Source: a virus
Strand: one strand, 5' to 3'
DNA length: 64,000 bases
IMG/VR virus record: IMGVR_UViG_3300025655_000024
Location: 16,180-80,179 of that record
Shown: positions 1,353 to 62,046 of the stretch, piece after piece
How the letters are laid out: every line of letters begins with the position of its first letter
Position numbering within the stretch: position 1 is the first letter of the stretch
Translations under genes and position numbers: made by a program
The notes under the pieces: generated by a model
Databases searched by the model: none
What the model saw: the letters and a program-made list of their open reading frames with translations, nothing else
Told to the model about the DNA's origin: nothing

Positions 1353-2506
1353 GTGCTTTCACACGGGGTTGGGAATTGATGAAAGGCATTGTTTGGAATG
1401 GCCGTGAATATGACGACATTGATGAAATTGACCCTATCATTCGTGGCATTTTGGATGATTACACGCAAGGCACGACACTGCCCGCACTGCCTTGGTCGGG
1501 TGGTGGTAAGCGAAAGGGGACACCTTGGACTCGTATGTTTGCCGAAGGAAGCAGTGCGCCCCTTCATCGTTTGAAGGGGTTCACTAATCCCGAACAAGAA
1601 ATGTTGCCTACGGTGGTGAATTGGGAAGGAGGCAAGACTTCAATCATGCCTCAATTCCGAGCCTTAACCAAGCCTTTGGGTGGTCGTTTTATCCCCGCTG
1701 AGTTATTCGGTGGAAGTGGCTCGTTCATTCTTGGCATGAACGACCCACAAGCACGAGGACTGTATGCTGATCTTAACCCTGACATGACGAACCTTATGGC
1801 TCAATTGAAACAGGGGATGGGCGATGTCAATATCGCCCAAGACCAAGACGATCTTGAGCGTATGGTTGCTGAATTGAATGAAATTCGCTATCGCAGGGAT
1901 GTCATGGGGCAAGAATTGGATGATGATGATTTGATGCGTATGGCTCACTTATTGGTTGGTGCAAATTTAGCAAACAGGAATGGGATGTTCACCTACAAGC
2001 CTTGGGACAAAGAACCTCAAACCTACACCGAAGGAAAAATACAACGCCCGTCATTCCGAGTCCAACCAAAGCGTGTGATGCCAAACGATGTTGGGTCAAT
2101 CAACCTTGACCCCTACGCATCACGATTGCGGAATGTGGACATACGCACAGGTGATTTGCGACAAACCTCCGAAGCCTTAACGCCTGAACATTTGCTTTAC
2201 CTTGACCCACCCTACATATCAAGGGACATTTCCTATGGAGGATCAGAACAACAATTGGAGGGCAAAACCTTCGATCAATTGCAGCGTGACACCATTGATA
2301 TAGCAAATGAACACAAAGGCCCAAGCATTGTTTCAAATTACCTGTATAGCAAAGAAACGGGCGAACCTTTGAAGGAATACATCAACGCCTTGCTGAATGC
2401 CGAAATGCAAATTCATCCATGGATCCGAAAGCCAAAGGGCAACAAGCAACCACAGGTGGAATTGATAGCGACAAAGAATTTCCCACAGCAACGCACGCTG
2501 TTCTAA
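1349..2506 (+). CDS. Dam-like (D12 class) N6-adenine DNA methyltransferase
   Basis: WEGGK, ELFGGSGS (SAM binding), DLNPD, LYLDPPY (catalytic). Confidence 0.85.
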   Translation: MSAFTRGWELMKGIVWNGREYDDIDEIDPIIRGILDDYTQGTTLPALPWSGGGKRKGTPWTRMFAEGSSAPLHRLKGFTNPEQEMLPTVVNWEGGKTSIMPQFRALTKPLGGRFIPAELFGGSGSFILGMNDPQARGLYADLNPDMTNLMAQLKQGMGDVNIAQDQDDLERMVAELNEIRYRRDVMGQELDDDDLMRMAHLLVGANLANRNGMFTYKPWDKEPQTYTEGKIQRPSFRVQPKRVMPNDVGSINLDPYASRLRNVDIRTGDLRQTSEALTPEHLLYLDPPYISRDISYGGSEQQLEGKTFDQLQRDTIDIANEHKGPSIVSNYLYSKETGEPLKEYINALLNAEMQIHPWIRKPKGNKQPQVELIATKNFPQQRTLF

Positions 2507-2778
2507 CGGTCACGGCTGATGCGACCACCGCCCGCACCCAAGTCACGCCTCATGCGTGGTCTTGCACCACTCCCTGAGCCACGAACCTTGCTTCGTGCAT
2601 ACCTCGCTCGTGTTCGCTTCTCCTTGTTCTTTCGTGATACGCTATACGCCCTGCGTTTAGCCTGTCGTTCAGCACGACCTTCGGATGGATTGCGAGTGTA
2701 GCCGTGAAATTTGCCTTTCAAGACTCCAAATCCGACAGCGAAGGCATGGGCTTTAGCCTCGGCTTCGCTTTTCGCCAT
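2503..2778 (-). CDS. Small, very basic protein (putative DNA-condensing)
   Basis: Arg/Lys/Gly-rich 91 aa. Carries AFAVGFGVLKG near the N-terminus. Last gene of the minus-strand block. Confidence 0.6.
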   Translation of the reverse strand: MAKSEAEAKAHAFAVGFGVLKGKFHGYTRNPSEGRAERQAKRRAYSVSRKNKEKRTRARYARSKVRGSGSGARPRMRRDLGAGGGRISRDR

Positions 2779-2927
2779 ATATTACCGCAGGTATCGCACT
2801 CCCATAAAAATATCCTATCCCGACTCCCCGCATAAAACCCATTGATTCTCCGAGCAAGCCCTACGGTTTGACACGAATCACATCGTTGTTCCAATTTTGC
2901 TCGGAACATTCGCTTCATGGCAATCAA
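2718..2927 (-). CDS. Zn-ribbon protein
   Basis: CDSC ... WECDTCG; coupled to the upstream stop. Confidence 0.55.
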   Translation of the reverse strand: MIAMKRMFRAKLEQRCDSCQTVGLARRINGFYAGSRDRIFLWECDTCGNIWRKAKPRLKPMPSLSDLES

Positions 2928-4075
2928 TACCCTGCGTGCGTGTAATAGAATTCAACCTCACCCACACCAAGTGGGCCGAGAGGGGAAATGACGGTGAGTG
3001 ACAAGTCACCGAAGGTAATCAATTTGCCCGCCACCGTGAAGTGTGGGCCTTCTTTCAAAGGACACATTTGGCTATCACCCGATCCAAACCAAACGGCTGT
3101 GATGAGTCGTGTTGAACCACCCGTTTCGTCAGCGAGTGGGGTAAAAGAAAGCGAACCCGTTGAACCCGAACCCGTGTAGGAAATGGTTTCCTTTGCTTGT
3201 TTGTGAACAGGAGTCAATTGATATGCACCGCCCGCCCCTGAGCCAATGGCTTGGTCGCTTTGAAAGAACAGGTGCGTTTCACCATCACCGTGAATGCTTG
3301 TTGCACTCACTTGAAAGCCATTGGGGTCACGAGCATAGAGTGTGCCTAAGTCGGTGAGGGGCAAAGCCCCCGCTGACAATGCGGGCGTAGTGCCGTAATC
3401 GTTAGATGGGTCAATGCCGTTCCCCGATGGGTCTTTCATCGCAGTTAAGGGGAATGGCCCACCACGAATGAACACACGCTTATCCTCAACCGCAGCGACA
3501 TTCAGTGGTGTAGCATAAGTGACACGCACAGCACCCAAAATGACCGATTGCTTGATGAGGTGAGAGGAAGGCATCTGTGGGTAAATGCCTGTGCTTGTAT
3601 CAACGACTGTGCCACAGACCAAACCAATGTTGTTCGTGGATGTCAATTCGGGATCGGCAATCACCAAGACCCAACACTCTTCGTTGAGGGCTGATGGCAA
3701 CACCATACCGCCCGCATTGAATCGGCTGTTGTAATAGGATGCTGTATCAATGTCAAACGCTGATGCTGAACCAACGGAATAGAACACACCGTCAAGGCAC
3801 ACCACGCCTGAGTCCACAAATATCTCATTAGCGTCACCACCTGCATTGGGTCGGACACAACAATTACCGCTGATAGGATTGTTCCTATCGCCCGCCCCCG
3901 AATCACTGCTGTAATCCGTCAAGGAAATGGGTATGACACCGTTGCCAATGCCACGCTCAAGGAAACCTGTGAGGGTTGCGGTGGACAGCACATCGGTATC
4001 ACGCAATCCATCGGATTGCCATGTCGCACCTGTGCCTGTCTTTTCGTGTCCTTCTCCGAGTCCTGTTGTTCCCAT
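2924..4075 (-). CDS. Putative minor tail/baseplate protein
   Basis: G/S/T-rich beta-type sequence at the end of the tail module. GAGGTGA SD. Confidence 0.55.
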   Translation of the reverse strand: MGTTGLGEGHEKTGTGATWQSDGLRDTDVLSTATLTGFLERGIGNGVIPISLTDYSSDSGAGDRNNPISGNCCVRPNAGGDANEIFVDSGVVCLDGVFYSVGSASAFDIDTASYYNSRFNAGGMVLPSALNEECWVLVIADPELTSTNNIGLVCGTVVDTSTGIYPQMPSSHLIKQSVILGAVRVTYATPLNVAAVEDKRVFIRGGPFPLTAMKDPSGNGIDPSNDYGTTPALSAGALPLTDLGTLYARDPNGFQVSATSIHGDGETHLFFQSDQAIGSGAGGAYQLTPVHKQAKETISYTGSGSTGSLSFTPLADETGGSTRLITAVWFGSGDSQMCPLKEGPHFTVAGKLITFGDLSLTVISPLGPLGVGEVEFYYTHAGY

Positions 4076-4084
4076 GTTTTCACC

Positions 4085-5200
4085 TCAAAATAATCTCGTC
4101 TGTATATGCCTTGGGTTGTTCAAGTGGTCTAACACACTTTCTGCCAAGGGATTCGTCACAAACGGTGAAAAGACATTCCCAATGACACCCGTTGAGGCAT
4201 CTGTGACGCTCTTACCCGACCTATATTTGTGACCTTCGGTGGGCGACCAATCGTAATTTTTAGGGAAACCCTGCATTACACCCAATTCCGAAGGAGTCAG
4301 CACACGATTGTAAATGTGCGTTGCAGGATTAGAGGACATCAAACCCGGTATTGTTTGCGATGCAGGGGAGGTGTGTTTCCATGTGTAGCCCTTTCTGTTG
4401 TCATTCCATTCCGACCCACCCGTTCCCACATCAACCGAACCCGTGTCATTGATGAACACATCACCCATCAAATACCGAGCAACATCAGGTCTTATAATCC
4501 CGCGCTGAACCAATTGAGCAAGTGTTTCTTCTTTGTGTCCACGAATTTCTTGTTCTTCTTCAAGCAAATGTGGTAAAGCATCTAATGGCGTGGTTGAAGG
4601 TCGTTGGAGTCGTGGGTCAGACAAGTCAAAACCCTGCCCAAGAACCGCCCTTTCACGATATGTCGGTGCGCCAAATTGTGCTGCCGTGACTTTCGGCATT
4701 CGCATTGATTGAAGCGAATCCATCCACCTCCTACGGTGAGGATTCCATGTGGCGTTTTCCATCAAATACGGTATGACTTTTGGGCTATTCTCAAAAGACC
4801 ATGAGTTAGGAGGGTTTTCGCTTGCTTCCAACATATCCAATAGGTTGCCGTAATTGTTGATGTGAGCCATACCGCGCATGGCTCGCTCATGTCCACTATC
4901 ACCAATGTTCAATGGTGATGCTCTTGAGAAATCAGGGCAAGGTGTGGATGCGTTAATGTGATATTTGCGACCACCCACCGCATCCAAGATTTCTTGCATC
5001 AACCTCGCATTGTCAAATTCATCACTCCCAATTGCCGCCCGTATATGTTTGGCTTCGGGGTGATTGGCAGCATGGGTGTCTAAAGCGGGCTTCCAATAAT
5101 CAACGGCTAATGCCGTAGGAATACCCTGCATTTTGAACCCTTGCGATACGCCACCGCCACCCGAATACAAATCAACGAGAGCAATATCGTCACGCATCAT
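4085..5200 (-). CDS. C5-cytosine DNA methyltransferase
   Basis: DLYSGGGG (motif I), TPCPDFS (IV), ENS (VI), RER (VIII), RVLTPSELGVMQGFP (IX), GNV (X). Confidence 0.9.
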   Translation of the reverse strand: MMRDDIALVDLYSGGGGVSQGFKMQGIPTALAVDYWKPALDTHAANHPEAKHIRAAIGSDEFDNARLMQEILDAVGGRKYHINASTPCPDFSRASPLNIGDSGHERAMRGMAHINNYGNLLDMLEASENPPNSWSFENSPKVIPYLMENATWNPHRRRWMDSLQSMRMPKVTAAQFGAPTYRERAVLGQGFDLSDPRLQRPSTTPLDALPHLLEEEQEIRGHKEETLAQLVQRGIIRPDVARYLMGDVFINDTGSVDVGTGGSEWNDNRKGYTWKHTSPASQTIPGLMSSNPATHIYNRVLTPSELGVMQGFPKNYDWSPTEGHKYRSGKSVTDASTGVIGNVFSPFVTNPLAESVLDHLNNPRHIQTRLF

Positions 5201-33641: not shown

Positions 33642-34808
33642 TCAACTCAAGTCACGGATTTTACCGCTTGCCTTGAAGAAAGCACAAATCAATTCGCCCA
33701 TCGTGTGAAACATTCCCATTTGTCCCAAGCGGTTGATACCGAATGGGTCGCCCGTTTCAATGCCACTCTCGTGGTAAAGGGTAGGCTTGGCGGTGGTGAA
33801 CCACAGGTAGTCGGTGTCAAGGAAATAGAGGCGAGAAGAACCGCCCGTTTCCTTGTGAACATCTTTGGAGGGGATGATTGGGACACCGTTGTAGGTAGCG
33901 ACCATGAAGCCACCCTGAATGCCCGGAACACCCTTCACACCATTGACACCCGGCACGACACGCTTCATTTCAACGAAGCGTTGTTGGGGTTGTAGCAATT
34001 GCTGAATGGTTTCAAGAGTGTCGTAGCCCGTAAGGATGACCTTTGGCTGACCACCTGCTTCCCACACTTGTCGGAACATTCCGTCAAGGATGTTCAGGGA
34101 CAATGCACGCTCGGCACTTGATGCACCTGCATCCACTTGAGCGTCATACCACTGAGCCGACCCTGCGGTTTGACCTGCACGAGTGAGCGAATAGATGTTG
34201 TGATCCGATTCAGCACTCACATCGGAGAAGGTGTTGTAGTCCTCCACATAGGAATTGGAGGTGATACGGTCAAGGGACTCAAAGTCGTTTCCTGCGGTGG
34301 TATCAATGTCACTCAACAGCATTTGGTTGATGTGTTCAGTGTGGTGCTTTGCCATTTCCATTTTGATGACAGCACGAGCATCACCAAGACCGTCATCCTT
34401 GTCAGCAAGGAACATGGCGGTTTCGGTGAGGTCAAAGGTGTGAGCCACAGTCTTTGGCTTGGTGCTGACCTCAGCGAAGGTTGGCTTGGTGGTTTCAGGG
34501 AGGGTTGCGTTCTCAGGAACACCGCCACCCTTCGTGAAGTCGGGCTTGGCGGTGGTGACACGCCATCCACTCTTCTCCCAAGGCTTCTTGGGGAGAATGC
34601 TGAAAGCGTTGAATTCTTGGTTCAATTGCGACCAAACCTTGCGACCAAAAATCGCTTGGTAAGTGCCACTCGTTGAAGAGGCGAGAGGTGAATCGGCTTT
34701 CAAGAGGTCAGTGCCACTGTAAGCCCATGCGTTCTGTCCTGCACCTGCACCGTAATACAGGCGTTCCATGTCCTCAATTGTTCGGATATATCCTTGACTT
34801 CCACTCAT
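33642..34808 (-). CDS. Major capsid protein (HK97 fold)
   Basis: Follows the protease gene. GVPENATLPET..F, YNGVPIIPSKDV, LYFLDTDYL, GKIRDL. GAGGTGA SD. Confidence 0.9.
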   Translation of the reverse strand: MSGSQGYIRTIEDMERLYYGAGAGQNAWAYSGTDLLKADSPLASSTSGTYQAIFGRKVWSQLNQEFNAFSILPKKPWEKSGWRVTTAKPDFTKGGGVPENATLPETTKPTFAEVSTKPKTVAHTFDLTETAMFLADKDDGLGDARAVIKMEMAKHHTEHINQMLLSDIDTTAGNDFESLDRITSNSYVEDYNTFSDVSAESDHNIYSLTRAGQTAGSAQWYDAQVDAGASSAERALSLNILDGMFRQVWEAGGQPKVILTGYDTLETIQQLLQPQQRFVEMKRVVPGVNGVKGVPGIQGGFMVATYNGVPIIPSKDVHKETGGSSRLYFLDTDYLWFTTAKPTLYHESGIETGDPFGINRLGQMGMFHTMGELICAFFKASGKIRDLS

Positions 34809-34819
34809 TTTCAATCACC

Positions 34820-36148
34820 TCAAAGGTTTCCTCCAACCATTGAACGCTGGCCCAATTCTTCCAAAGCACGCCATGCGTCAAGTCCATTTCCAAGTGCTGC
34901 GTATTCCTCATGCGTTGGCACTCGCACAGCGTTCTCGGAAGGCACAGGAACGGCTGACTTTTGGATTTCAGCGTTCTCAGTGCGGAGGGAGTCAATTTCA
35001 GCCTTCAGGGAGGCGATTTGGGAAGTGAAGTCTTTGGACTTGTGGATTTCCAATGCTCGTTGCGTTTCGGCTTCGTAGCGGTCATTCCACTCCTTCTCCA
35101 CAAGGGACTTCACAGCCTCTTCGTCACGGATTGAGGCGTAGGCTCGGTAGCCACGCTCAAGGGACTCAGGGGAGAGGTCAGCACCCTTGATGACATTTCC
35201 ACCCGTTGATTGTGGGTGTCGCATCTGTGGTGCGTTCTTGATGACATACTTGTTGGCACGAGCGTTGCCGAGAGCAGGTCGTGGGGCGAGGGTTGCATCC
35301 TCACCACTGCCGTAAAGGTCGCCTTGTCCTCGGTGGTTGAAACCATGTTCACCATCAACGCCCACCATGTAGGCTTTGCCGAGTCCAAAGTGATCTCGTA
35401 GGCCATCCAAATCAACACCTTGCTCGTGTGCGAATTTTTCAAGGGTGTCAATGTAGGCGACAGCCGATTGCTCGGCTTTGCCCAAGTCATCCTTTTCGCA
35501 CTCGCACTCGGCCATGTTGCATGAACCGCACACCTTTGCGCTCTTTTCCATTTCCAAGCCTTTGCTGATTCGGGCAAGGGCATCTCTTACTTCGGTCAAA
35601 ACATTCGTTTCTTCGCTCATTTCGTTCACATCCATTTTCAATAGGGTGTATCGGGATTCAGGATTGATTCCCTTTTTGCACAGGGTAATTTCGTGCAATT
35701 CCATGTCCGTAATTTCCCTGTGGCTTCCATGTTCGGGAGTCGTCTTGTTCACTCGGAACAAGGCTTGTCCACCAATGGAGAATGCTCGCAATTCGCCGTT
35801 GCGAATTTGCTTTTGGACTTCACGGGCTTTTTCAATGTCGTTTCGGATTTGGCAAACCACGAATAGCCCGTGATCATCCACTTCGGATTTCCAAACCCGC
35901 CCTTCACTATCAGTGTAGGAAGGAAGGACTTGACCCACTTGAATACCGCTGTGGGCCAATTGAACATTACGATAGGATGGGTTGCTCATAAAGCCCCCAA
36001 ATGCCTTCTTCAATGCACTAACGGGGATTCTGTCACCCTGCTTGTCCACCATATCAACGGAGGCATACCCGGCAATAACCAAGTCCCCATTGGAGTCGGA
36101 CTTCAGGATGAAGTCTTGTCCAACAGCCGACCATGTTGCCGTGTTCAT
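34820..36148 (-). CDS. Prohead protease fused to scaffold
   Basis: IAGYASVDMVDKQGD, LAHS, AFSIGG, LHEITL..GINPE; coiled-coil C-terminal half. Confidence 0.9.
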   Translation of the reverse strand: MNTATWSAVGQDFILKSDSNGDLVIAGYASVDMVDKQGDRIPVSALKKAFGGFMSNPSYRNVQLAHSGIQVGQVLPSYTDSEGRVWKSEVDDHGLFVVCQIRNDIEKAREVQKQIRNGELRAFSIGGQALFRVNKTTPEHGSHREITDMELHEITLCKKGINPESRYTLLKMDVNEMSEETNVLTEVRDALARISKGLEMEKSAKVCGSCNMAECECEKDDLGKAEQSAVAYIDTLEKFAHEQGVDLDGLRDHFGLGKAYMVGVDGEHGFNHRGQGDLYGSGEDATLAPRPALGNARANKYVIKNAPQMRHPQSTGGNVIKGADLSPESLERGYRAYASIRDEEAVKSLVEKEWNDRYEAETQRALEIHKSKDFTSQIASLKAEIDSLRTENAEIQKSAVPVPSENAVRVPTHEEYAALGNGLDAWRALEELGQRSMVGGNL

Positions 36149-41868: not shown

Positions 41869-43656
41869 TCATAAACCTAACCTCCGATTGAGGTTATTCA
41901 ATTTTTCATCAACATTGGATTCGGCAGGGCTTCTTTCACTTCGCCTGTCTTGAACGGTTTGGCTCATGTGATGCTCTCCGTCAAAGCGATTCACACGGTC
42001 AGGGCTTTTGCCACCACTTCTCCGTGAATGCAAATTCAATTGTGATTTGCCTCGTGTTCTCAATGGTCGCAAATCCGTTCCATGAGTGGTTGTCATAGCC
42101 GAGGGTATGGGGCGAGAGCCATGAATGTCATCCTCAACATTCCGTTTCCAAATTTCATCCATCGTTGGTGGTAAAATGTGGGATTTAGCCATCGCACCCC
42201 CACCTTGTTGCGGTGGCGCACCTTCAGGCGGTGGGCCTGTTTGCGGTGGTGGCGGTGGTGCTTCTTTGTAATCAAAGTGAAGGTAGCCATTGTCATCACG
42301 CAATTGAGCATCATAGCCCGCTTGCTTCATTTGCATCATGTTGCGGATAGCCATTTCATCCCTTCGCATAGCCATGATTTCATCCTCTTCCTCATGTGGA
42401 TTGAGAATGATTTCCCACTCGCTAATTTGAAGGGCTTCAAGCAATAGAGGGAATAGACGATTGTTATACAGGTTTTGACTTGAAGCCAAAGCCCGATTGG
42501 TGACGACAATTTGCATTCCTTCGTTGTTCAAACCACCGCCCGACACATCGTTCATAAACACATTTGATACACCGTAAAACGATGAAATGCGTTGGCGAAT
42601 GTCGTCTTTGATCGGGATGTATTGTAATTCTTCAAGGGTGTCCATCATACGCACATATTCAAGACCACCACGACCCGTTTCTGTTTCAACACCAACCGTA
42701 GGAATGTATTGTGGGTCACGCTCAAGGTGTTCCTGAATGTTGCGTGCGGTTCGCTCAACGGTTTCAAGGTTGGATGATTTAATCACCATCACACCTCTCG
42801 GCATCCGCCTCTTTTGGTAAGCCGAATACACATAATTGTCCATCGCAATCAGCGTGTTCACTTGTCGCCATAGTGTAGCAACGGGCGAGCGACCATACAA
42901 TTTTGAGGGCGACCATTTGCTCAAATGGATGACTTCGCCTTCGGTATAGACCTGTCCTGCACCAACACCTGCGAGGTTCATGTAATGAATGGGAACAACG
43001 GGTAATCCTGTTTTCGGACATTTCTCATCCTTGTCGCTTGTGCGGAATGACCTGTCCAACAGGCTCGTGTATTGCTTGCCCCCACGCACACCACGCTTAT
43101 CGGCAACAATACGCATGAAAATGGGGTCAGCACGAGTGATTTCTTTGATGCGGTAAAATTGTGGTTGTCCTGTGTTGGGATCCACGAAATACTCCTTCGT
43201 GAGAATCAGGTATGCGTCATCAACAATGTTCAAGTCCATTTCCACTTCACGAAGGACTTCAAGGAATGATTGCGACATTCGGTTGTCCTCGTGGAGAAGG
43301 GCGTTTGCATATTCCAATTGTCCCTTATCCGCATCACGAACCTCGCCTCCGCACATACGGCACGAGTCCACTGCCTTGTTGTATTCTTCATCGCACTCTC
43401 GGCACTTTTTCACAAATTTTGGTTTCCATGTCCAACCTTTGCGGAATGTTTCAGTCGCCAAGTGATTGAGAATTGAACGCAACACCAAACACTCGTATGA
43501 GGCAGCGTATAGTGCGGGGATGGTAATACCCTGCAACAATGGAGGCTCTTGGACACCTGTGGTGAACAATGGCATCTGTGGCGTGGGTGTTTCATGGCGT
43601 TCCATGTCCATGCCAAGAGCCGAAAACAAACGGTCAATGCGTTTCTTTTCACTCAT
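41869..43656 (-). CDS. Portal protein
   Basis: DLNIVDDAYL, EVIHLSKW..LYGRSPV, PRGVM, ISSFYGVS; downstream of terminase. Confidence 0.9.
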   Translation of the reverse strand: MSEKKRIDRLFSALGMDMERHETPTPQMPLFTTGVQEPPLLQGITIPALYAASYECLVLRSILNHLATETFRKGWTWKPKFVKKCRECDEEYNKAVDSCRMCGGEVRDADKGQLEYANALLHEDNRMSQSFLEVLREVEMDLNIVDDAYLILTKEYFVDPNTGQPQFYRIKEITRADPIFMRIVADKRGVRGGKQYTSLLDRSFRTSDKDEKCPKTGLPVVPIHYMNLAGVGAGQVYTEGEVIHLSKWSPSKLYGRSPVATLWRQVNTLIAMDNYVYSAYQKRRMPRGVMVIKSSNLETVERTARNIQEHLERDPQYIPTVGVETETGRGGLEYVRMMDTLEELQYIPIKDDIRQRISSFYGVSNVFMNDVSGGGLNNEGMQIVVTNRALASSQNLYNNRLFPLLLEALQISEWEIILNPHEEEDEIMAMRRDEMAIRNMMQMKQAGYDAQLRDDNGYLHFDYKEAPPPPPQTGPPPEGAPPQQGGGAMAKSHILPPTMDEIWKRNVEDDIHGSRPIPSAMTTTHGTDLRPLRTRGKSQLNLHSRRSGGKSPDRVNRFDGEHHMSQTVQDRRSERSPAESNVDEKLNNLNRRLGL

Positions 43657-44896
43657 GGGCAATCACCTCAAACGCTCGCTTCAATTTGTCCTCCGACATC
43701 CCCCACGCCTTAAGCAATTCAACCTGCTCTTTCTTTGAAGCGTAGGTGTAAGTCAAAAGACGCATAGCCGTTTCATCACCTTCATAGGATTTGAGCAAAA
43801 CCGCAGCATTCCTTTTGTTTTCATTCAAATAGGGATAGGCTTTGCGGGCTGCCTTTTGCACTGAAAGGTCGCCTTCAATGACGAATTGGCGATCTTCCCA
43901 CATAATGTTGCCCACGCCAAGACTCTCCTTTAACACAACGGTAAATTCATCACCTCTTTTGCTCGTGAACGGCAAAAACAAACGAGGCGAACCTGATGGC
44001 GTAATTTCCAAGTGTCCACCAACATCCCAAAGGTTAGCGATGAAATTGTCAGCATTTTTGAGCATGATTTTGGGGGACTGTTTGCCGTAAAGCAGTGCCT
44101 TTGAGTCATTATTCCTCGCTTTGCCAACCACTTCAATGTCAAACAAAAAGCCGTGTGATTTGATGAGCATGGCAATTTCAGCCGAAGTCGCTGTGCTATG
44201 TGATGCGAGCATTTGTGAAGTCATCCCACCATAATCGTCTATGTTTTGTGATGCTTTGCTCAATATGTCATATTCTCGTCGGCTCAAACGGCTTTCAGCG
44301 TTGAGTCGGTCAGACCATTCTTTCCATATTGCTTCTCGTGTTTCTTCGTCAGCGTTTCGTGACGAAACAACCGCTTTACGAAACAGGAATTCCAAGCGTT
44401 CACCATGCGTAGCGAGCATATTGAAATCGTTATCACGGACATCAATGTGTCCCCAATCGCTGTCACGCCACCATGAAAATTCTTTGAGCAAAGCATCCTG
44501 TTCCTGCTTCAACAAATTGATTAGGCGAGGGATAATGGCTTCTTCACCATTTTCCTGCATGATTTTGATTATTTGATCGCCACTTGTGCCAAAATTGTCC
44601 ATGAAATAACTGCGTGTTATTCCCACCGTTGGCGTTGCCGTTGTTCCCGGTTGGTCGGTTGGCATACCTTCGTTTTCGTTGCCTGAAAATCCTTGAATCT
44701 GTGAACCCGCTGTTGCTTGAGGTGGCATTTCCTGCTGTTGCTCTTGTTGGATGGTTTTGGCTTCCTCTTGTTTTGCTTCTTCCAATTCTTTGGTCTTTTC
44801 AGCAACCTTCTCCGAAGCCATTTGCTGATTGTTTGGCAACAATTTGAGGATGGCACTATCCATCGTATTCAGCATGGGATTCCATTCAATTTTCAT
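43649..44896 (-). CDS. Protein with C-terminal degenerate LAGLIDADG-like domain
   Basis: FIANLWDVGGHL..PRL..LGVGNI..YPYLNENKRNAAVLL. Confidence 0.55.
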   Translation of the reverse strand: MKIEWNPMLNTMDSAILKLLPNNQQMASEKVAEKTKELEEAKQEEAKTIQQEQQQEMPPQATAGSQIQGFSGNENEGMPTDQPGTTATPTVGITRSYFMDNFGTSGDQIIKIMQENGEEAIIPRLINLLKQEQDALLKEFSWWRDSDWGHIDVRDNDFNMLATHGERLEFLFRKAVVSSRNADEETREAIWKEWSDRLNAESRLSRREYDILSKASQNIDDYGGMTSQMLASHSTATSAEIAMLIKSHGFLFDIEVVGKARNNDSKALLYGKQSPKIMLKNADNFIANLWDVGGHLEITPSGSPRLFLPFTSKRGDEFTVVLKESLGVGNIMWEDRQFVIEGDLSVQKAARKAYPYLNENKRNAAVLLKSYEGDETAMRLLTYTYASKKEQVELLKAWGMSEDKLKRAFEVIAHE

Positions 44897-46329
44897 GCGT
44901 CAGCCCACCCTATTCGTTTTGTCCACGCCTCGCTGTCAAGAATCACGATGCTGTCTTTATACTCCTTCGTAGCCTGAACCGCAAGGGCGAGGGCAATAAC
45001 TGTATCGTCGTGTTTTCCAAGCGACTCCATTTTACCATTCGGCAACATGGTGAACATGGACAATTCGTTTATCAAAATGTCCATCAATCTTCGTGTAGCC
45101 CCATCCTCTTTGTAGGGCAAAATCAAATGCCGTTGTTCAAAGTGCAATTGAAGAGTGTGAATGACCGCTTCTTTTTTCATACGGCTCATGGTGAATGGTT
45201 TGATGGGCAAATCGCTGATTTCTTTCAACACTTGATGAAATGCCTGTGCGAAATTGTTGGTTTCCAATTCCACAATGACGGGATTGTAGCGAGTGTTTAA
45301 TTCTATGATTTTGTCAATTTGGTCGTTGAATGACATTCCTTTTTCACGGTGCATCCAAACCACACGCTTGTGTCGGTTTTCATCCACCGCAATCACGACC
45401 ATGCAGGTGTAGTCGGCTGAACGGTCAGGGCTGATTGCAGGATCCCAACCGATGTAATAATTCACATCCTCTCGGTTGGGGTCGGCATACGGGTCAAATT
45501 CAAACGCATATTCCAAGTCCTTGCATGGTTCAACCATATCTTCGGGGAATAGACTCGCATCGCTCGCAATTGGGCGACACAGGTATTCACGGGTAAATGC
45601 AATTGAAGTCATTTCGCTTCTTCGCCCTTGTAGTGCTTCAAGACTCCAACGCTCAGGCCACAGCGGTTCACCCGTCTGCTCACTAATGGCGGGGTATTCA
45701 CGGACTTGATAGCCACTCAAGCCTTTCAATTCTTGGTAAAGGTCGGTGTAGGAGAACGGAGTGCCGACAATGCACAATTGTGCCGAGTGGTGAAGCACAG
45801 GCAACAAAGCGGTGTAAAACCACGAAGCGATGTGTGCTAATTGTGTTGATGCTTCGCTTGACAGAATATCGTCAAGCACCACGATGTCAGGGTGCGCACC
45901 ACGCACAGCCTTACCGACTGACATAGCCGATATGGATGATTTGTTTGTCATTTTGAATTTCTGTTTCGCCCATCCTCGTGCGGGCTTCAAATGCGAAAGC
46001 ACAGGATTTGACTCAATCAATTCATTCATTTTCGCCATGTGTTCAATGGACTGATGCTGACTGTGTGAAAAGAATAGCACTTCTGTGCCGGGATTGTAAG
46101 CCATTTTCCATAGCAAATAGACTCGGTAAAACACCGATTTGCCGTGATCACGAGAAGCGATTACACAGGTTTTGTTGTGTTCCTCCGACATGGCAAACCA
46201 TTCTTCGTGAAAGTCGGCTAATTGATAGCCTTCTTCTTTGCCACAAATGTCCTCAAAAAAGAATTTGAAATCCCTGCGCCCCATTTCCCAATCCACTTTG
46301 TTGGCGAGGTCAAGGACACCTGCTGACAC
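44893..46329 (-). CDS. terL: Terminase large subunit
   Basis: SRDHGKS (Walker A), VVLDD (Walker B), VGTP, IGWDPA, HDDTVIALALA. Confidence 0.95.
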   Translation of the reverse strand: MSAGVLDLANKVDWEMGRRDFKFFFEDICGKEEGYQLADFHEEWFAMSEEHNKTCVIASRDHGKSVFYRVYLLWKMAYNPGTEVLFFSHSQHQSIEHMAKMNELIESNPVLSHLKPARGWAKQKFKMTNKSSISAMSVGKAVRGAHPDIVVLDDILSSEASTQLAHIASWFYTALLPVLHHSAQLCIVGTPFSYTDLYQELKGLSGYQVREYPAISEQTGEPLWPERWSLEALQGRRSEMTSIAFTREYLCRPIASDASLFPEDMVEPCKDLEYAFEFDPYADPNREDVNYYIGWDPAISPDRSADYTCMVVIAVDENRHKRVVWMHREKGMSFNDQIDKIIELNTRYNPVIVELETNNFAQAFHQVLKEISDLPIKPFTMSRMKKEAVIHTLQLHFEQRHLILPYKEDGATRRLMDILINELSMFTMLPNGKMESLGKHDDTVIALALAVQATKEYKDSIVILDSEAWTKRIGWADA

Positions 46330-46339: not shown

Positions 46340-48442
46340 CTAAACCCAACCATTCGGCAAAAGTGAATAATTGACATCCGCATTGTTTTCTTTCAACAGA
46401 CTGTTTCGCATACCGCTTGGCAAAAGGGATAGGTTGGTGTCATGGCTCATTTTGAAGGTTTCACCAAACAATTCTTCCATTTCATCCATGAATTGTGGAT
46501 GCACTCTTTCAACCTCATCCATGTTATTTTTGATGTGGCTCATGGCTTCTTTCTTACCTTCTTGTGCATCAAGAATCAATTCCCCAACCTCTTCGGATGA
46601 CATATTGCGGATTGCTTTCATTGGAGTGGATTTTTCCTTCGCACCACCCTTTTCGCCACCCACTTTCGTGGTCGCTTCTGTGCTTTCACGAGTCGTTTTT
46701 CTTCGCTTGCTGCGTTTTGTGGCTTCGGTTTCAGTGGCCTTTTTGTCCTCAACAGGTGCGGATTCTTCTCCGCCCCCAAACAGTGTCGTTTGGTCTGTCG
46801 TTGGCAATTTAGTGGCTTGTTCCTCAACCTTTGGTTCGGTTTGCTTTACGCTCTCAGTCTGTTCTTGAGGTTGTCCGAAGCCTGAGTCCCTAATTGCTTC
46901 AAGCATAGCCCTTCCCATAGCGGTTTCATTTTCATCCAACGCACCTCTCGTTTCGCCCGGTTCGGGCAAATTGGTTTGTGGCTCAGGCTCTTTTTTCTTT
47001 GGCGTTCTCTTTCGCTTAGGGCGTTTGAAATTATCAATTATGTTTGGATTTTGGCGTTCCAATTTTTGCCCTGCTTTTGCTTGAGAAGTCCTTTGTGTTC
47101 CATCGCCTTCGGTCAATTTCAATGGAGAACGACCTTGCCCTAATTGTAGGGGATTCCGAATCGGCCCTGACCCTAACCGTTTTACCGAACCATCCTGCAT
47201 TGGTATTTCATCCAAAGGTTCAATTTTTTCTTCTCCCCTTGTTGAAAGTGCGGTGTTGCTTGGTTTTGGTGTAGGGACAGGCAAATGGTTGGGGTTAATT
47301 GGGCGTTTGTATTCCTGCGTGGTTGTTTTTTGTCGTGTCGGTGCAACCGCTTCACGCTTTTGATTTGGACTCAGTGTTTCACCACCAAGCCTTCGGTTCG
47401 CTTCGTTGAGAGTCGGTGTTGGTGTTTCTTCTAAAGTCGGCAATTCGGGGTATTTGCCCGCTTGACGAATGCGCTTCAATTCTCTAATTGCTTCGCCCGA
47501 AGTCATTTTACCACTGTTAATGGCGTTAATCCTTCGTTGTTCAATTTTCTTTCGCTTTGCTTCTATGTCTTTGTAGTTTTGGTTGCGAATTGGGTCTGTC
47601 CTGTCACCCAAATCACCTTGAGTGCGTGGATCCAATTCTTTCTGTTCACTTACCATAGGAATGTCGGTTATATCAAGTGGGCGTGTTGCTTCCTCGGTTG
47701 TTGCACCGACAGTGCGTTTTTCAGGGGCATTGACTCGTAGCATATCTTCCCTTTGATCTCTTTGTCCAAGTGTTTGAAACGCTTCTAACAAGTCTTGACG
47801 AGAAGGTGCTTGCCCTTTCTGTCTGTTTAGCGCGCTTCTCACCGCAGGGTTTTCACCCGGAAATTTGTATTGTCCTCCTTGACTCCACCAAGCAGAAGAA
47901 GGTGGCGAACCACTCACCTGTTCGGTGCTTTCAGTCACAGGTTGTTCAGTGTTGATTTCCTCTCGCCTCGGCACTTGGCTTGGTTCAAGCGGCCTTTCAG
48001 CACCGCCCCCTTGACCGAATCCACCCGGCCCTAAGTCAGCCATCGTTGGTGATTGACCGCTTATTCTTGACGAAGTTGCAGGAACATTAACATTACCTGT
48101 TGCTTGTCCGAATGGGTCATTAAACGCCTGTTCGTTTTGCTGTTGTCGTGTCGGCAAAGGAACACTGTCCGTTAATCTTTGCCCACCCATTTGTTGCAGG
48201 TTGTTTGACACGCTTTGCTGAGGTGTTTTCCTTTCTCCCACCTTATTCTTGATTCGTTGCATAAAACCGGGTCGTTGTTGGCGTGCTTGCATGGCTCGCA
48301 TTTGATCTTCAAAGCCTTTCGTCAAATCCCAAGCCATTGAAAATGCTGTGTCCTTTGTGATGACTTGACGGGGCTGACTCTTCCCCAACATTTCGGCACG
48401 AGCCTTGATGAGCAAATCGTCAAACCTATCCATGTCAATCAC
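46340..48442 (-). CDS. Low-complexity 700-aa protein, putative internal head protein
   Basis: Q/P/E/K/T-rich; AFSMAWDLTKG motif; two SLLPxG copies at the C-terminus. Confidence 0.6.
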   Translation of the reverse strand: MIDMDRFDDLLIKARAEMLGKSQPRQVITKDTAFSMAWDLTKGFEDQMRAMQARQQRPGFMQRIKNKVGERKTPQQSVSNNLQQMGGQRLTDSVPLPTRQQQNEQAFNDPFGQATGNVNVPATSSRISGQSPTMADLGPGGFGQGGGAERPLEPSQVPRREEINTEQPVTESTEQVSGSPPSSAWWSQGGQYKFPGENPAVRSALNRQKGQAPSRQDLLEAFQTLGQRDQREDMLRVNAPEKRTVGATTEEATRPLDITDIPMVSEQKELDPRTQGDLGDRTDPIRNQNYKDIEAKRKKIEQRRINAINSGKMTSGEAIRELKRIRQAGKYPELPTLEETPTPTLNEANRRLGGETLSPNQKREAVAPTRQKTTTQEYKRPINPNHLPVPTPKPSNTALSTRGEEKIEPLDEIPMQDGSVKRLGSGPIRNPLQLGQGRSPLKLTEGDGTQRTSQAKAGQKLERQNPNIIDNFKRPKRKRTPKKKEPEPQTNLPEPGETRGALDENETAMGRAMLEAIRDSGFGQPQEQTESVKQTEPKVEEQATKLPTTDQTTLFGGGEESAPVEDKKATETEATKRSKRRKTTRESTEATTKVGGEKGGAKEKSTPMKAIRNMSSEEVGELILDAQEGKKEAMSHIKNNMDEVERVHPQFMDEMEELFGETFKMSHDTNLSLLPSGMRNSLLKENNADVNYSLLPNGWV

Positions 48443-59273: not shown

Positions 59274-59275
59274 TG

Positions 59276-59416
59276 TTAATCATCCTCCTTCTTTTGTTTG
59301 TTGAAATACTCGCTAATGATGTGATTGATGAACGAGGATTTTGACTCGCGCCCCCTTGCAGCCTCCATTTTAGCAAATAAATCATCGCTCATCACGACTG
59401 ATACATGACGGCTCAT
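59276..59416 (-). CDS. Ribbon-helix-helix (CopG-like) regulator, absent from the ORF track
   Basis: Hand translation: MSRHVSVVMSDDLFAKMEAARGRESKSSFINHIISEYFNKQKKEDD. Confidence 0.75.
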   Translation of the reverse strand: MSRHVSVVMSDDLFAKMEAARGRESKSSFINHIISEYFNKQKKEDD

Positions 59417-59439
59417 GTGTGCTTGTCAAGAATGAGAAG

Positions 59440-59452
59440 CATATCAAGGTTG
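59440..59452 (-). promoter_or_regulatory. Putative promoter of the RHH/GTPase operon
   Basis: TTGATATG about 24 nt upstream of ATG 59416. Confidence 0.4.
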
Positions 59453-59455
59453 TGA

Positions 59456-60535
59456 TTATTGTGAGCCTTTCAGCACAGCCCACCCATGCTCAAAGGCATC
59501 CTGTGGTTCGGAGAGCGTGAAATCAAGCAAATCACGCTGTTGTCGGCTATTCGGCACAAATCGTGAATGCCCAAAGCGAGCCAATGTTTCCAATGGGTCA
59601 AAGCCCTCAATGTTGGTGGCAACCATTTCAAGCCTATCACCACGACTTTCAGCCTTTGCACCCGATTTGTCGGGGCGAATCATTATTTGAGCGTTTAAGC
59701 CCAAGTCAGCATATTTTGACGCTGCATCAGCGGAGTCAAAGGCAACAATTGGCTGACCCTCATTGATGCGTTCATTCAGGGCTGAAAGGTATCGTTGCAT
59801 ATCGTAATTTTCGGAATATGAAGAAGGTTGGTTTTCATAGGGCGGATCCGAAGCGAGCAAATTGCTTAGGTTAATGTCCCATTCGTTGAGTGCATCCGCA
59901 GCATCACCTTGACGCAATTCCACATTTTCAAAAATAGGTTGATAATCAAGGAAATTTACATCTTCGCCTGTTTTGAAAGGTGTCAAAGTCCCCGAAGGTA
60001 TGTTGTTGTAGCCCGTTGGCATCCGCACCATTCCTTGAAACCCTGTTTTTTTGTTCATGTAATACATTTGAGCCATTTCATATTCTTCTATGGGTGTCAA
60101 AGGAATTCCTTGTTTGATTTTATGCAGGTAATAATTCAAAGAACCCTTTTTGGGCAAATTGCCTTGTTGAATGGCACGCAGGGTTGCACCACGAACATCC
60201 TCACGCCATTTAGCAGGTGTCATGTCACTATCGTATTGACTAAAGGGAATTGTCAAGCCACCTTCGGTATTTTTCAAATGGCGCAGCATATTGACGAGTC
60301 CTGCGTCATATTCGTTCATTCGCACTTGACCCGTTGGCATCAAACCCTGAACAAATCCACCCGGACCACTTGCAGGATCGTCTAAGCCCGTTGTTCCCGC
60401 CATTTGTTCAGCCACACGCATGAGAGTGTTGTAGTGCGGTTGGTTTTTATTGCCGGGATGTTTGATGAATGAGGATATGCTTTTTCCTCGCAACCAATTC
60501 GGATTTCTCCGAAATGCGTTGATGTCCACCATCAC
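59456..60535 (-). CDS. Divergent Dam-like N6-adenine DNA methyltransferase
   Basis: HPGNK, DPASGPGG, NEYD..L, SDPPY. Confidence 0.75.
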   Translation of the reverse strand: MMVDINAFRRNPNWLRGKSISSFIKHPGNKNQPHYNTLMRVAEQMAGTTGLDDPASGPGGFVQGLMPTGQVRMNEYDAGLVNMLRHLKNTEGGLTIPFSQYDSDMTPAKWREDVRGATLRAIQQGNLPKKGSLNYYLHKIKQGIPLTPIEEYEMAQMYYMNKKTGFQGMVRMPTGYNNIPSGTLTPFKTGEDVNFLDYQPIFENVELRQGDAADALNEWDINLSNLLASDPPYENQPSSYSENYDMQRYLSALNERINEGQPIVAFDSADAASKYADLGLNAQIMIRPDKSGAKAESRGDRLEMVATNIEGFDPLETLARFGHSRFVPNSRQQRDLLDFTLSEPQDAFEHGWAVLKGSQ

Positions 60536-62046
60536 AAGCCCTCCAATTCAAAGTCCTCATCAAAAATGCGTGGTTGAATGAAAGGTTGTCCTCTCAAATT
60601 AGGGGGCATAATCGTGTCCCGAATTTGACGGGCATTGATTGCACCCTTTGCCCGTTCCACCAATTCACGCATTTGATCCATGTTGAATTGTTCTATTCCA
60701 TCGTCAGCCATTTCTTGCGTCATGGTGACAGGTCTTGCTCGGTTTGGCATCACGGGATTGATTTGTGTTCCTTTGGGAACGGACATTGACATTTGACCCC
60801 TCACAGGATAACGGGCTTCGGGTGCATAATGCCATTGTTCCGCCCTTTGTTGCTCATTTGGCATCATATTGTTCACAGTGATATTGGTGTTGGGGTTAAT
60901 GCCCATTTCACGCAATCCACGATCCAACGCACGCATAGAAGCCAATCCCGCAGGTGAGGCGAGTGCTTCTTCTATCCGCCCCGTGTTTTCCAAAAGCGAA
61001 GCCATTGTGTTCAAACCAAGCCCCATGCCCCTGAAAAGTGGGTTCACATCAATCATCGGGCCTTGACCCAATGCACTGATTTTTCCCGAAGTGACAGGCA
61101 TAGTGGTTTGTCCTTTTTCCCGCAATTCGTCAGCATACGCCAAATAATTGGGGACACCACCACCGTATTGAACCATTTGCGGATAATAGAACGAATAATT
61201 CTCTAATCGGTTTCGCAATTCATTGGGTAAAGGCATACGCCCTGCATATTGTTTGGCGTTATCAAACAACATTTGCACTACATGGAGAGGAATTTCTTTG
61301 TGTCCAAGAAATTCTTCGGGCGAAGAAGATATGCCTTGTTCCGCCAACGCCTCCCACCATTCATCGTCATCGTCATAATCATCTCTTCGCAACCCAACAC
61401 TCTCAGGTGTTTCATACCCCAAGCGTGTAGCAAATTCTGTTGGGTCTTGTTCCAATTGCTCTAAGTGTTGTATTGCGGATGTGATAGGGATTCTCCCCAA
61501 TGTTTCAATGCCCAATTCAGGTGGTATTTCACGCTGAAATGGCCCTGCATCAGCCATGAGGTGCGGTTGATACCACATATTGTAAGTGAAATCATCCCGC
61601 CCTATTTGTTTTTGAATGGCGTTCCACCCTGCCTCAAAAGCATCCTCCGATGCGGTGAACATACCCCCAAAGGATTCGGATGAACACGCATCCCATTCAT
61701 TTTGAACCCGTGTCAAATCTTCAACCAAGGTAAAACCGTCTGCTGCCCTTGTTCTATCCGCAACCCAAGGTTGAGCGAGCCACTCTTCCAATTCTTTTTG
61801 TAATTTTTCGCATGGTTGTTCAATGATGATTTCAATATCATCCCATGAGGCTTTTCCAAAATGTTTCCTCAACACCTCACGAAATTTCATTCGTGCTTCT
61901 TCACAACATTTGTCGCCACCCATATCGGCTTGAACGGCATCCTCAGCCTCAACGGTGATTTCAGGGTCATACATTGACGGCTCATTCACATTGGCGGGGT
62001 GTGTGAAAATACGGGGTTGCCCCTGTGGTCTTTCAAGTCCGACCAT
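60532..62046 (-). CDS. Modular protein with GNAT acetyltransferase-like domain
   Basis: IDVNPLFRGMGLG (acetyl-CoA motif A), SPAG; internal AFEAGWNAIQK. Confidence 0.6.
   Translation of the reverse strand: MVGLERPQGQPRIFTHPANVNEPSMYDPEITVEAEDAVQADMGGDKCCEEARMKFREVLRKHFGKASWDDIEIIIEQPCEKLQKELEEWLAQPWVADRTRAADGFTLVEDLTRVQNEWDACSSESFGGMFTASEDAFEAGWNAIQKQIGRDDFTYNMWYQPHLMADAGPFQREIPPELGIETLGRIPITSAIQHLEQLEQDPTEFATRLGYETPESVGLRRDDYDDDDEWWEALAEQGISSSPEEFLGHKEIPLHVVQMLFDNAKQYAGRMPLPNELRNRLENYSFYYPQMVQYGGGVPNYLAYADELREKGQTTMPVTSGKISALGQGPMIDVNPLFRGMGLGLNTMASLLENTGRIEEALASPAGLASMRALDRGLREMGINPNTNITVNNMMPNEQQRAEQWHYAPEARYPVRGQMSMSVPKGTQINPVMPNRARPVTMTQEMADDGIEQFNMDQMRELVERAKGAINARQIRDTIMPPNLRGQPFIQPRIFDEDFELEGL

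Follow-up and report, generated by a model that had tools for sequence, protein, structure and literature searches.

The magrovirus analyzed here, an ocean archaeal virus, carries a 10-residue motif, AFxx(G/A)WxhhK, on a series of unrelated proteins, and the most likely reading, with about an even chance of being right, is that this tag is a portable label that loads magrovirus proteins into the head. We found no published description of it. The host of magroviruses is an uncultured archaeon. The window, that is, the whole 64,000-nucleotide stretch analyzed, was claimed in an earlier note to contain ten copies on about nine proteins, and all ten were located, on nine proteins:

1355..1384, + strand: tag AFTRGWELMK (MS-AFTRGWELMK), residues 3-12 of methyltransferase 1 (gene 1349-2506, +)
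2716..2745, - strand: degenerate tag AFAVGFGVLK, residues 12-21 of a 91-aa basic protein (gene 2503-2778, -)
48317..48346, - strand: tag AFSMAWDLTK, residue 33 of a 700-aa low-complexity protein (gene 46340-48442, -)
52382..52414, - strand: degenerate internal tag IFESVWGSIIK, residue 145 of a 555-aa protein (gene 51179-52846, -)
53216..53245, - strand: tag AFGVGWKIVK in a zinc-ribbon protein (ORF 52856-53494, -)
53899..53928, - strand: tag AFLVGWEFVK, residues 9-18 of a PCWDGY/DUF6321 protein (gene 53482-53952, -)
55022..55051, - strand: tag AFEKGWAISK near the N-terminus of a 236-aa protein (gene 54371-55081, -)
54377..54406, - strand: weak C-terminal copy AFDQAWNQEM (AFDQAWNQEMA, then stop) of the same 236-aa protein (gene 54371-55081, -)
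59468..59497, - strand: C-terminal tag AFEHGWAVLK-GSQ (AFEHGWAVLKGSQ, then stop) of methyltransferase 2 (gene 59456-60535, -)
61609..61641, - strand: internal tag AFEAGWNAIQK, residue 136 of a 504-aa protein (gene 60532-62046, -)

The motif was more frequent than in shuffled proteins: AF..[GA]W occurred 8 times where 0.16 were expected, and all 300 per-protein shuffles gave fewer than 8. A position matrix built only from the tags of other genomes gave seven of the window copies 15-25 bits, where the top score among 88,572 reversed segments, our null, was 9.2 bits. These seven were the tags at 1355 (21.9 bits), 48346 (23.5), 53245 (17.1), 53928 (17.8), 55051 (20.2), 59497 (25.2, the highest in the window) and 61641 (15.0). 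The copies at 2745, 52414 and 54406 were weak by the matrix. The first two, in which F replaces W (2745) or one residue is inserted (52414), are backed by orthologs with canonical tags: basic-protein orthologs have AFGIGWSVVK or AFDRAWEIIR immediately ahead of the same G(K/E)F(R/K)GY core, and orthologs of the 555-aa protein have FGRS(N/E)D-AFEDAWSLVK in the equivalent position. The copy at 54406 is doubtful as a genuine tag, as it scored 8.6 bits, under the null maximum, has no Lys, and was absent from orthologs at the equivalent place, which reads QYDDAFKEMM. The tail region (5538-33610) had zero copies, in agreement with the earlier note.

The nine carriers showed no significant similarity to one another, except for the two methyltransferases (E 0.006). 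Methyltransferase 1 is of the D12 class (Pfam PF02086, E 6e-14), and its orthologs keep the N-terminal tag, for example as AFDQAWSIMK. Methyltransferase 2, the "second Dam" of the earlier note, has a DPPY motif and weak similarity to methyltransferase 1, but gave no match in a Pfam search; its orthologs keep the C-terminal tag. The basic protein has 24 K+R against 5 D+E in the 70 residues past the tag (pI 12.0). The gene at 46340-48442 lies immediately upstream of the large terminase, and its tag is kept in the equivalent protein of relatives (AFDAAWELLK, AFDMAWDLTK). The zinc-ribbon ORF has weak Pfam matches to zinc-ribbon families, and its tag is N-terminal if the ATG of MAK-AF is the start; relatives have a separate 132-aa ORF beginning MAKAFAMGWSLVK. 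The DUF6321 carrier (PF19846, E 1.6e-18) has 30 listed phage matches, some of them cyanophage records, and in 28 of these it aligns only past its tag, from residue 18 or 19. Orthologs of the 236-aa protein have MDNK-AFDIGWTLLK, and those of the 504-aa protein SSD-AFEAGWDAILK or ASED-AFEAAWDHLAK; the 504-aa protein itself, previously called a GNAT, had no match in Pfam or PHROG. The pattern F-[TG]-x-S-[EN] noted before three copies (FGRSND at 52414, FTLSEPQD at 59497 and FTASED at 61641) was seen again before internal tags in relatives.

The observation holds, but the window copies are degenerate and scattered, and the earlier reading missed the canonical form. In related magrovirus contigs this is a near-invariant leader at the extreme N-terminus, M-T-A-F-D-T-A-W-x-L-L-K-(A/M)-P, on tandem gene arrays. 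In the window's virus the canonical array lies immediately past the contig end; a sister contig that runs beyond the window's end (L134) has 11 further tagged genes. The virus clade contained 242 distinct tagged ORFs, 189 of them with the tag at most 8 residues from the start. The N-tagged cargos of at least 40 aa (n = 184) fell into 89 BLAST clusters, which bears out the claimed portability. Copies on the coding strand numbered 4 to 16 in each of G001-G008 and 1 to about 4 in G009, while a reversed-pattern control in the related genomes gave zero. The tag is restricted to these viruses: in 596 Gb of cellular genomes the strict form had 14 singleton matches, about the chance level, none of them in an archaeal genome.

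All 189 N-terminal tags have F2 and W6, and 187 of them have A or G at position 5. The layout is an N-cap (T, S, N or D) followed by A-F-(D/E)-x-(A/G)-W-x-h-h-K and often (A/M)-P, and the tag is predicted to be a self-contained 10-residue amphipathic helix, in line with the helix proposed earlier; the single model made has a short helix at residues 3-11. The p53 transactivation domain has an F-x-x-x-W-x-x-L helix that is bound by MDM2. The Phe/Trp/Leu spacing on one helix face is identical in the tag, with no evolutionary relation, and by analogy suggests that the tag inserts into a hydrophobic cleft. A short, terminal helix with a hydrophobic moment of 0.35-0.55 could also be a membrane-binding or other localization helix, directed to the host membrane or a viral factory, as the short, amphipathic, terminal membrane-targeting sequences of MinD and FtsA are. 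We regard this as quite improbable: the helix has a net charge near zero and keeps an acidic residue at position 3, the invariant F2/W6 and the A/G-only position 5 speak for a stereospecific protein pocket and against a lipid surface, and the cargo acts on DNA (the methyltransferases and the pI 12 protein).

Placement at termini and module borders also held, including junctions of fused modules in relatives. In contig L289 a single ORF holds methyltransferase, tag and basic module, with the tag of methyltransferase 2 as the joint; other modules precede the tag and basic module in L130 and L310. The junction invariably reads K, then G(K/E)F(R/K)GY. Gene modules are shuffled at tag borders. This shuffling, and the near-identical sequence with which the short-gene arrays open, might suggest a mere cassette border that has no address function and is maintained because it favors recombination and module shuffling. 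Such an origin is the least probable of those considered. The peptide is fixed while synonymous sites vary freely (182 distinct DNA strings in 189 N-terminal tags, with synonymous codons mixed), and it is also retained internally, C-terminally, and across lineages with capsid proteins 60-100% identical. Because codons differ between copies, conservation is at the level of the peptide and not of the DNA, and it is on the peptide that selection acts.

The Lys that ends the motif was proposed in the earlier note as a cut site. It matches a conserved h-h-K at the N-terminus of the capsid protein and at both edges of the protease domain:

34820..36148, - strand: prohead serine protease (S78) fused to a coiled-coil scaffold (PF04586, E 6.6e-10; PHROG head maturation protease)
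36101..36109, - strand: I-L-K (SD next), residues 14-16, immediately ahead of the protease domain
35636..35644, - strand: L-L-K (MD next), residues 169-171, C-terminal edge of the protease domain
33642..34814, - strand: HK97-fold major capsid protein (phrog_24667, E 6e-51; PF17236)
34698..34706, - strand: L-L-K (AD next), residues 37-39 of the capsid protein ORF

The site before the protease domain is DF(I/L)(L/I)K in relatives (SLLK-AG in G009). That at its C-terminal edge, where a variable acidic linker comes next, is invariant as Y(T/S)(L/I)LK-M(D/E) in 27 relatives (NILK-QD in G009), and the capsid site is invariant as DLLK(A/S)D in 60 (ELLK-SD in G009). All three are thus retained in G009, whose capsid protein is 60% identical to that of the window's virus but whose protease-scaffold is only 34% identical. 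The tag-end pattern [LIVF][LVMI]K[AM][PDE], a choice partly made after the sites were seen, has 4 non-tag matches in the genome; three of them fall in the capsid protein or the protease-scaffold, a pair that accounts for 3% of the proteome. One capsid match, VIK-ME at residue 149, lies within the fold, and cleavage there is unlikely. The two h-h-K sites that border the protease domain may be structural strands. The capsid N-terminus is conserved over its full length, so conservation is no marker of a disposable propeptide. In the window copies K is followed by G, N, E or R and not by A/M, and cutting at C-terminal tags would take off three residues only; both count against cleavage. The protease-scaffold, whose C-terminal tail (GLDAWRALEEL) is conserved, is a candidate processing enzyme and a possible receptor.

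The shared h-h-K end, the position at fused-module junctions and the constant K-G boundary would also fit a removable pro-peptide or linker with no loading role, which would keep toxic enzymes inactive or yield several proteins from fused modules. We consider this improbable, since 89 unrelated folds would hardly all be inhibited by a 12-residue N-terminal helix set off by Pro, and cutting at the C-terminal tags would again take off three residues only. Moreover, S78 prohead proteases of HK97-type systems are active inside assembled proheads, so processing would still imply co-location.

The helix might instead dock to a hub outside the virion, most plausibly the virus chaperonin (thermosome/GroEL family) or else another viral or host factor, which would fold or hold the fast-evolving tagged proteins:

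63145..63999, + strand: start of a viral chaperonin gene, cut by the contig end (PF00118 at G000:79483-80178, E 6e-77)

The chaperonin co-occurs with the tag too: 9 of the 10 genomes searched have a PF00118 gene, and 8 of those are tag-rich. It adjoins the tagged array and is convergent to it in G000/L134 (where the array follows in the sister contig), G002 and G003, and an F/W/L amphipathic helix is a type of peptide that fits hydrophobic grooves. Still, we consider chaperonin docking unlikely. G006 has 9 tags and no chaperonin match, in a genome only 88% complete, and G009 has a chaperonin with few tags. The gene belongs to the replication arm, on the opposite strand, and does not neighbor the array in G004, G005 or G008. 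Docking of this kind leaves unexplained the h-h-K end common to head proteins and the placement at module junctions, and we know of no tag requirement for chaperonin clients.

Indirect evidence for loading into the head comes, besides the shared h-h-K end and the placement at module junctions, from the strand and nature of the tagged genes. In four genomes 43 of 44 were on the strand of the capsid gene, which carries about 63% of all genes. The cargo looks like proteins injected by other phages. An AlphaFold model (pLDDT 77.6) of one cargo family ("YHGT") matches KptA/Tpt1, DarT, cholera toxin A1 and Rhs ADP-ribosyltransferase toxins; the largest cargo cluster has a weak ART-PolyVal lead (0.86); and two N6-adenine methyltransferases and the pI 12 protein are included. 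Among the polyvalent proteins packaged in virions, ART, N6A methylase and ParB are hub domains (PMC5512222). Polyvalent proteins and MuF-fused polymorphic toxins of phages likewise combine ADP-ribosyltransferase and N6-adenine methylase domains and are predicted to be packaged into the head for injection together with the DNA (PMC5512222), but they join domains in one giant protein that enters by a MuF/portal-binding domain, whereas the magrovirus genes are small and separate, each with its own 10-residue tag. The magrovirus head-module proteins scanned contained no MuF domain.

Encapsulin cargo-loading peptides are short and terminal, occur on unrelated enzymes, and dock to the inner face of an HK97-fold shell; they are usually C-terminal, extended and uncleaved, and encapsulins have no packaged DNA. 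The magrovirus tag is similarly short, terminal and spread over unrelated enzymes, but helical, with docking to the capsid only proposed. The internal proteins and Alt of phage T4 have in common only a short N-terminal capsid targeting sequence, removed by the prohead protease (PMC3012670, PMC7411985), and described for IPI-III and Alt by Mullaney & Black 1996, as cited in PMC9024508 and PMC7411985. In both viruses a short N-terminal peptide is the sole common part of diverse, fast-changing proteins (head-packaged in T4), and its end motif recurs in head proteins that are processed by the protease (T4) or are candidates for it (magrovirus). The T4 set includes an ADP-ribosyltransferase, comparable to the ART-fold cargo. 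The sequences are unrelated, however, and the gp21-type protease of T4 cuts after Glu, whereas magroviruses have the HK97-type S78 enzyme. Magroviruses also differ in their archaeal host, in having 89 cargo clusters instead of a handful, in their internal and C-terminal tags, and in that head loading is a prediction. In phage P1, the N-terminal 30 residues of DarB suffice to load the capsid (PMC9024508). This segment sends a DNA-modifying anti-restriction methyltransferase into the capsid, from which it is delivered with the DNA (PMC9024508), but it is about 30 residues long, serves one protein, needs other Dar proteins and has no family-wide consensus.

For the head-loading label, we infer the following steps. 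F2, W6 and the hydrophobic residues at 8-9, with small residues 1 and 5 on their flanks, would dock in a hydrophobic site in the prohead interior, either the scaffold part of the protease-scaffold or the inner face of the capsid protein, so that tagged proteins would be enclosed in the head. The HK97-type (S78) prohead protease might then cleave past the terminal Lys, releasing an N-terminal tag from its cargo and separating modules joined by an internal one. The cargo, comprising DNA methyltransferases, ADP-ribosyltransferase-fold enzymes, the protamine-like basic protein and many unknowns, would be retained in the head and delivered with the DNA into the next host cell.

All ten copies of the motif that the earlier note claimed for the window are present where it had placed them. 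The motif is a 10-residue tag, AFxx(G/A)WxhhK (h = hydrophobic; numbered A1 to K10). For its core, AF..[GA]W, the expected count in 21,325 residues is 0.16; eight were found, a number reached in none of 300 shuffled proteomes. With a position matrix trained on the tags of other genomes only, seven window matches scored 15–25 bits; no score among 88,572 reversed segments exceeded 9.2. Two copies scored low, one at 2745 with F replacing W and one at 52414 with a one-residue insertion; at both places the orthologues have canonical tags. At 54406, the C-terminal copy (8.6 bits) lacks the Lys, is missing in orthologues and is doubtful as a tag.

The carriers had been described as unrelated and the tail genes as free of the motif, and both statements held. 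The nine window proteins show no significant similarity to one another, save a weak likeness between methyltransferase 1 (1349–2506, plus strand, tag N-terminal) and methyltransferase 2 (59456–60535, minus strand, tag C-terminal). No copy was found in the tail region, nor in a scan of the first 16 kb of the contig. Codons differ between the window copies; therefore, conservation acts on the peptide.

The window covers bases 16180–80179 of a single 80,179-base contig, estimated to be 76% complete. Its head genes are the following.

44893–46329, minus strand: large terminase
41869–43662, minus strand: portal
34820–36148, minus strand: HK97-type S78 prohead protease fused to a coiled-coil scaffold (Pfam PF04586)
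33642–34814, minus strand: HK97-fold major capsid protein (phrog_24667, major head protein, E = 6e-51; PF17236)

At 75–100% terminase identity, the relatives are marine contigs from IMG/VR, the longest about 100 kb, and they bear a chaperonin gene. The order of the predicted genes fits that of magroviruses, tailed viruses infecting Marine Group II archaea (PMC5434244). A Pfam search with the 415- and 1169-amino-acid proteins of the head module gave no match. Two tagged proteins, of 555 (51179–52846) and 700 amino acids (46340–48442, both minus strand), are of low complexity, highly charged and encoded just upstream of the terminase, the latter in the position expected of a small terminase subunit. 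Residues 65–106 of the portal (43345–43470, minus strand) carry a conserved ETFRKGW followed by a CxxC...CxxC zinc ribbon, which is unusual in portals. ETFRKGW matches the tag in a loose pattern only; we excluded it from the tag count because it belongs to a conserved portal segment and has no h-h-K end.

In four near-complete related genomes, a degenerate DNA pattern for AFxx(G/A)Wxxx-K gave 4, 13, 16 and 9 matches. A single match, in G002, was off the coding strand, and a reversed control gave none. Five further genomes had 8, 9, 11, 11 and 1. Many of the matches in relatives form tandem arrays of short genes, each starting M-T-A-F-D-T-A-W-x-L-L-K-(A/M)-P. The window copies are scattered and partly degenerate, with G at position 5 and with internal and C-terminal placements among them. 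The window's contig stops inside a chaperonin gene. The contig of locus L134, with a terminase 100% identical to that of the window, overlaps the end of the window's contig: its first 2,515 bases match the final 2,515 there at 98.3% (window 61486–64000; L134:1-14843), and it runs 12 kb further with 11 more N-terminally tagged genes. Since L134 matches the end and then continues, the assembly is truncated there; thus, the window holds scattered copies only, and the canonical array lies just past its contig's end.

Across all the sequence analysed, we counted 242 distinct tagged ORFs; the tag lies no more than 8 residues from the start in 189, is internal in 47 and C-terminal in 6. All 189 N-terminal tags have F2 and W6. 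A fills position 1 in 180 of them and S in 9; position 5 holds A in 164, G in 23 and S in 2, and K10 is present in 179. These 189 tags are encoded by 182 different DNA strings in which synonymous codons are mixed. An element acting at the DNA level, such as a promoter, ribosome site or recombination site, was rejected because synonymous codons vary freely, and this free variation also makes it unlikely that the tag is purely a recombination border. At the Ala codon before the Trp codon, GCC was used in 0% of 164 tags from related loci, compared with 23% in gene bodies. As GCC-TGG would create CCTGG, its absence may reflect avoidance of a CCWGG-type site.

Just before the helix stands T, S, N or G, with D in internal copies, and position 3 is D or E, a pattern suggestive of a helix capping box. 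An AlphaFold model of one cargo family predicts the tag as a helix over residues 3–11. A membrane helix is unlikely, because the net charge of the tag is near zero and F2 and W6 are invariant; the conserved Asp/Glu at position 3 also speaks against it. Helices of the MinD/FtsA type are, unlike the tag, cationic and loosely conserved.

A search of 596 Gb of cellular genomes for the strict form of the tag gave 14 singletons in assorted bacteria, about the number expected by chance on our estimate, and none in archaeal genomes. The looser form was found in at least 120 stretches of IMG/VR. In the relative G009 there are about 4 tags, and these are of A-W-x-h-L-K type; an M-x-W-x-x-(I/L)-x-K dialect looked for there gave zero matches. 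We found no published description of the motif in the magrovirus papers examined or in a full-text search for the peptide strings.

The proteins behind the tag are diverse: the 184 N-terminally tagged cargos of at least 40 amino acids fell into 89 BLAST clusters. The cargos are separate genes of 70–500 amino acids. In the window, methyltransferase 1 is a D12 methyltransferase by Pfam and methyltransferase 2 carries a DPPY motif; a 91-amino-acid basic protein has 24 K+R and 5 D+E over the 70 residues after the tag (pI 12.0), and there are also a zinc-ribbon protein and several proteins without a match. For the PCWDGY/DUF6321 protein, the alignment begins just after the tag in 28 of the 30 phage matches listed, cyanophage records included. 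Its PCWDGYEQVGMK mini-domain plus DUF6321 (53482–53952, minus strand) has homologues in 373 phage records, from cyanophages, pelagiphages and haloarchaeal viruses, and the annotated matches listed are all 'hypothetical protein'.

Two clusters from the relatives are joint largest, with 18 members each. The model of one, the 'YHGT' family (pLDDT 77.6), had as its best Foldseek matches KptA/Tpt1, DarT, cholera toxin A1 and Rhs ADP-ribosyltransferase toxins, which suggests a fold of this class. The other gave a weak language-model lead to ART-PolyVal (score 0.86), taken as a lead only. A Pfam search with 20 cargo representatives returned merely sub-threshold matches (GNAT, ASCH and similar); ParB-like and HExxH motifs were recognised by eye alone, with no Pfam match for either. 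ART, N6A methylase and ParB domains are hubs among the virion-packaged polyvalent proteins of phages (PMC5512222). Set against a repertoire of ART, N6A methylase and ParB-like nuclease, the magrovirus cargo offers a predicted ART fold (Foldseek), a D12 methylase (Pfam) and a candidate ParB-like motif seen by eye. MuF/polyvalent effectors are single polypeptides with a MuF or portal-associated carrier, unlike the separate cargo genes here.

Several observations connect the tag with the head. In four genomes, 43 of 44 tagged genes lie on the strand of the capsid gene, methyltransferase 1 being the exception. The tag-end pattern [LIVF][LVMI]K[AM][PDE], which was refined after the sites had been seen, has four non-tag matches in this genome. 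Of these, three are found in two proteins that jointly account for 3% of the proteome, the capsid protein and the protease-scaffold fusion; G002 and G004 show the same. The sites singled out in these proteins are the following, with a slash at the candidate cut point after Lys.

LLK/AD: capsid residues 37–39
ILK/SD: just before the protease domain
LLK/MD: C-terminal edge of the protease domain, followed by a variable acidic linker; invariant in 27 relatives

G009, where the protease-scaffold is only 34% identical, keeps all three (ELLK/SD, SLLK/AG and NILK/QD). The sites at the protease edges could instead be structural. An alignment of the capsid N-terminus, in which we sought a propeptide, was uninformative because the entire N-terminus is invariant, and the literature yielded no usable measurement of how haloarchaeal relatives process their capsid protein. 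The AlphaFold model of the capsid protein (alignment of 21 close relatives) had a pLDDT of 33, too low to place LLK/AD on the fold. Complex prediction of the capsid protein with the tag peptide scored 0.00 (alignments A2 and A3), which counts neither for nor against binding. The capsid N-terminus (NAWAYSGTDLLK-AD; 34698–34742) resembles the protease N-terminus (ATWSAVGQDFILK-SD; 36101–36139, both minus strand) in a common W-x3-G-x-D-h-h-K-(A/S)-D pattern, and the two may be related leader segments. The idea that the tag mimics the scaffold tail was rejected, as the tail, ...GLD(A/G)WRALEEL, has just D-x-W...L in common with it, which is too weak.

The tag is also found at junctions between fused modules. 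On related contigs, L289:12076-13395 (plus strand) joins methyltransferase 2, the tag and the basic module in one ORF, and other modules precede the tag and basic module in L130:5366-5938 and L310:8372-9142. The basic module (window 2503–2778) begins K/G(K/E)F(R/K)GY in every fusion. These fusions look like a small polyprotein architecture. From the protein sequences, the h-h-K sites and the junctions fit a candidate Lys-directed processing site common to head proteins and cargo.

The tag might instead dock to the viral chaperonin. Nine of the ten genomes searched encode a chaperonin, eight of the nine being tag-rich, and the gene adjoins the tagged array, in convergent orientation, in three (G003:29506-30969, G002:90854-92293 and, in the window's own contig, G000:79483-80178). 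However, the chaperonin gene belongs to the replication arm and is encoded on the opposite strand, and in G004, G005 and G008 it is not adjacent to the array. G006 has 9 tags and no chaperonin, but this genome is only 88% complete.

The earlier note had read the tag as a signal that loads enzymes into the head, with a cut at the Lys. This reading is partly supported, by the portability of a tag placed at termini and domain borders, by the strand shared with the capsid gene and by the h-h-K common to head proteins. We regard head loading with Lys-directed processing as evenly poised. We propose tentatively that one helix of 10–12 residues might be a universal loading and release signal for cargo of an HK97-fold capsid, with a changeable set of 10–20 enzymes delivered per virion together with the DNA. 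In this sample, some ninety families or more would supply that set.

Among known systems, the capsid targeting sequence of T4 comes closest, a short N-terminal peptide that is the sole thing common to diverse head-packaged defence and takeover proteins and that the prohead protease removes (PMC3012670, PMC7411985). The DarB signal of P1 is a second precedent (PMC9024508). As in T4, one short N-terminal peptide is found on otherwise unrelated proteins of one virus. The T4 sequence ends at a prohead-protease motif, and the h-h-K in which the magrovirus tag ends, recurring in head proteins, is a candidate counterpart. However, the consensus AFDxAWxLLK is unlike the T4 sequence, and the magrovirus protease is of the HK97 type (Pfam S78) whereas that of T4 is of the gp21 type. 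Because the two have different sequences, protease families and host domains, and the magrovirus cargo is far more diverse, the tag is best described as a putative analogue of the T4 sequence and not a member of its class. The shell protein is HK97-fold, as in encapsulins, in which a cargo-loading peptide fits a pocket at the inner face of the protomer.

Magroviruses are among the most abundant viruses of ocean archaea, and their host is uncultured. To our knowledge, the only demonstrations of short capsid-targeting peptides come from a few laboratory phages (T4, P1), with a handful of cargos each; the same principle seems to run at a much larger scale in these uncultured archaeal viruses. If the tag docks to the viral chaperonin instead, this would be the first chaperonin with tagged clients. 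If it loads the head, it would provide a ready-made 10-residue label with which foreign proteins could be packed into capsids of the HK97 type. The protein set injected by an uncultured virus would then be readable straight from its genome, and the tag would single out those unknown genes that act at the very start of infection. ADP-ribosylation and DNA methylation would then be implicated as tools for takeover or anti-defence against marine archaea.
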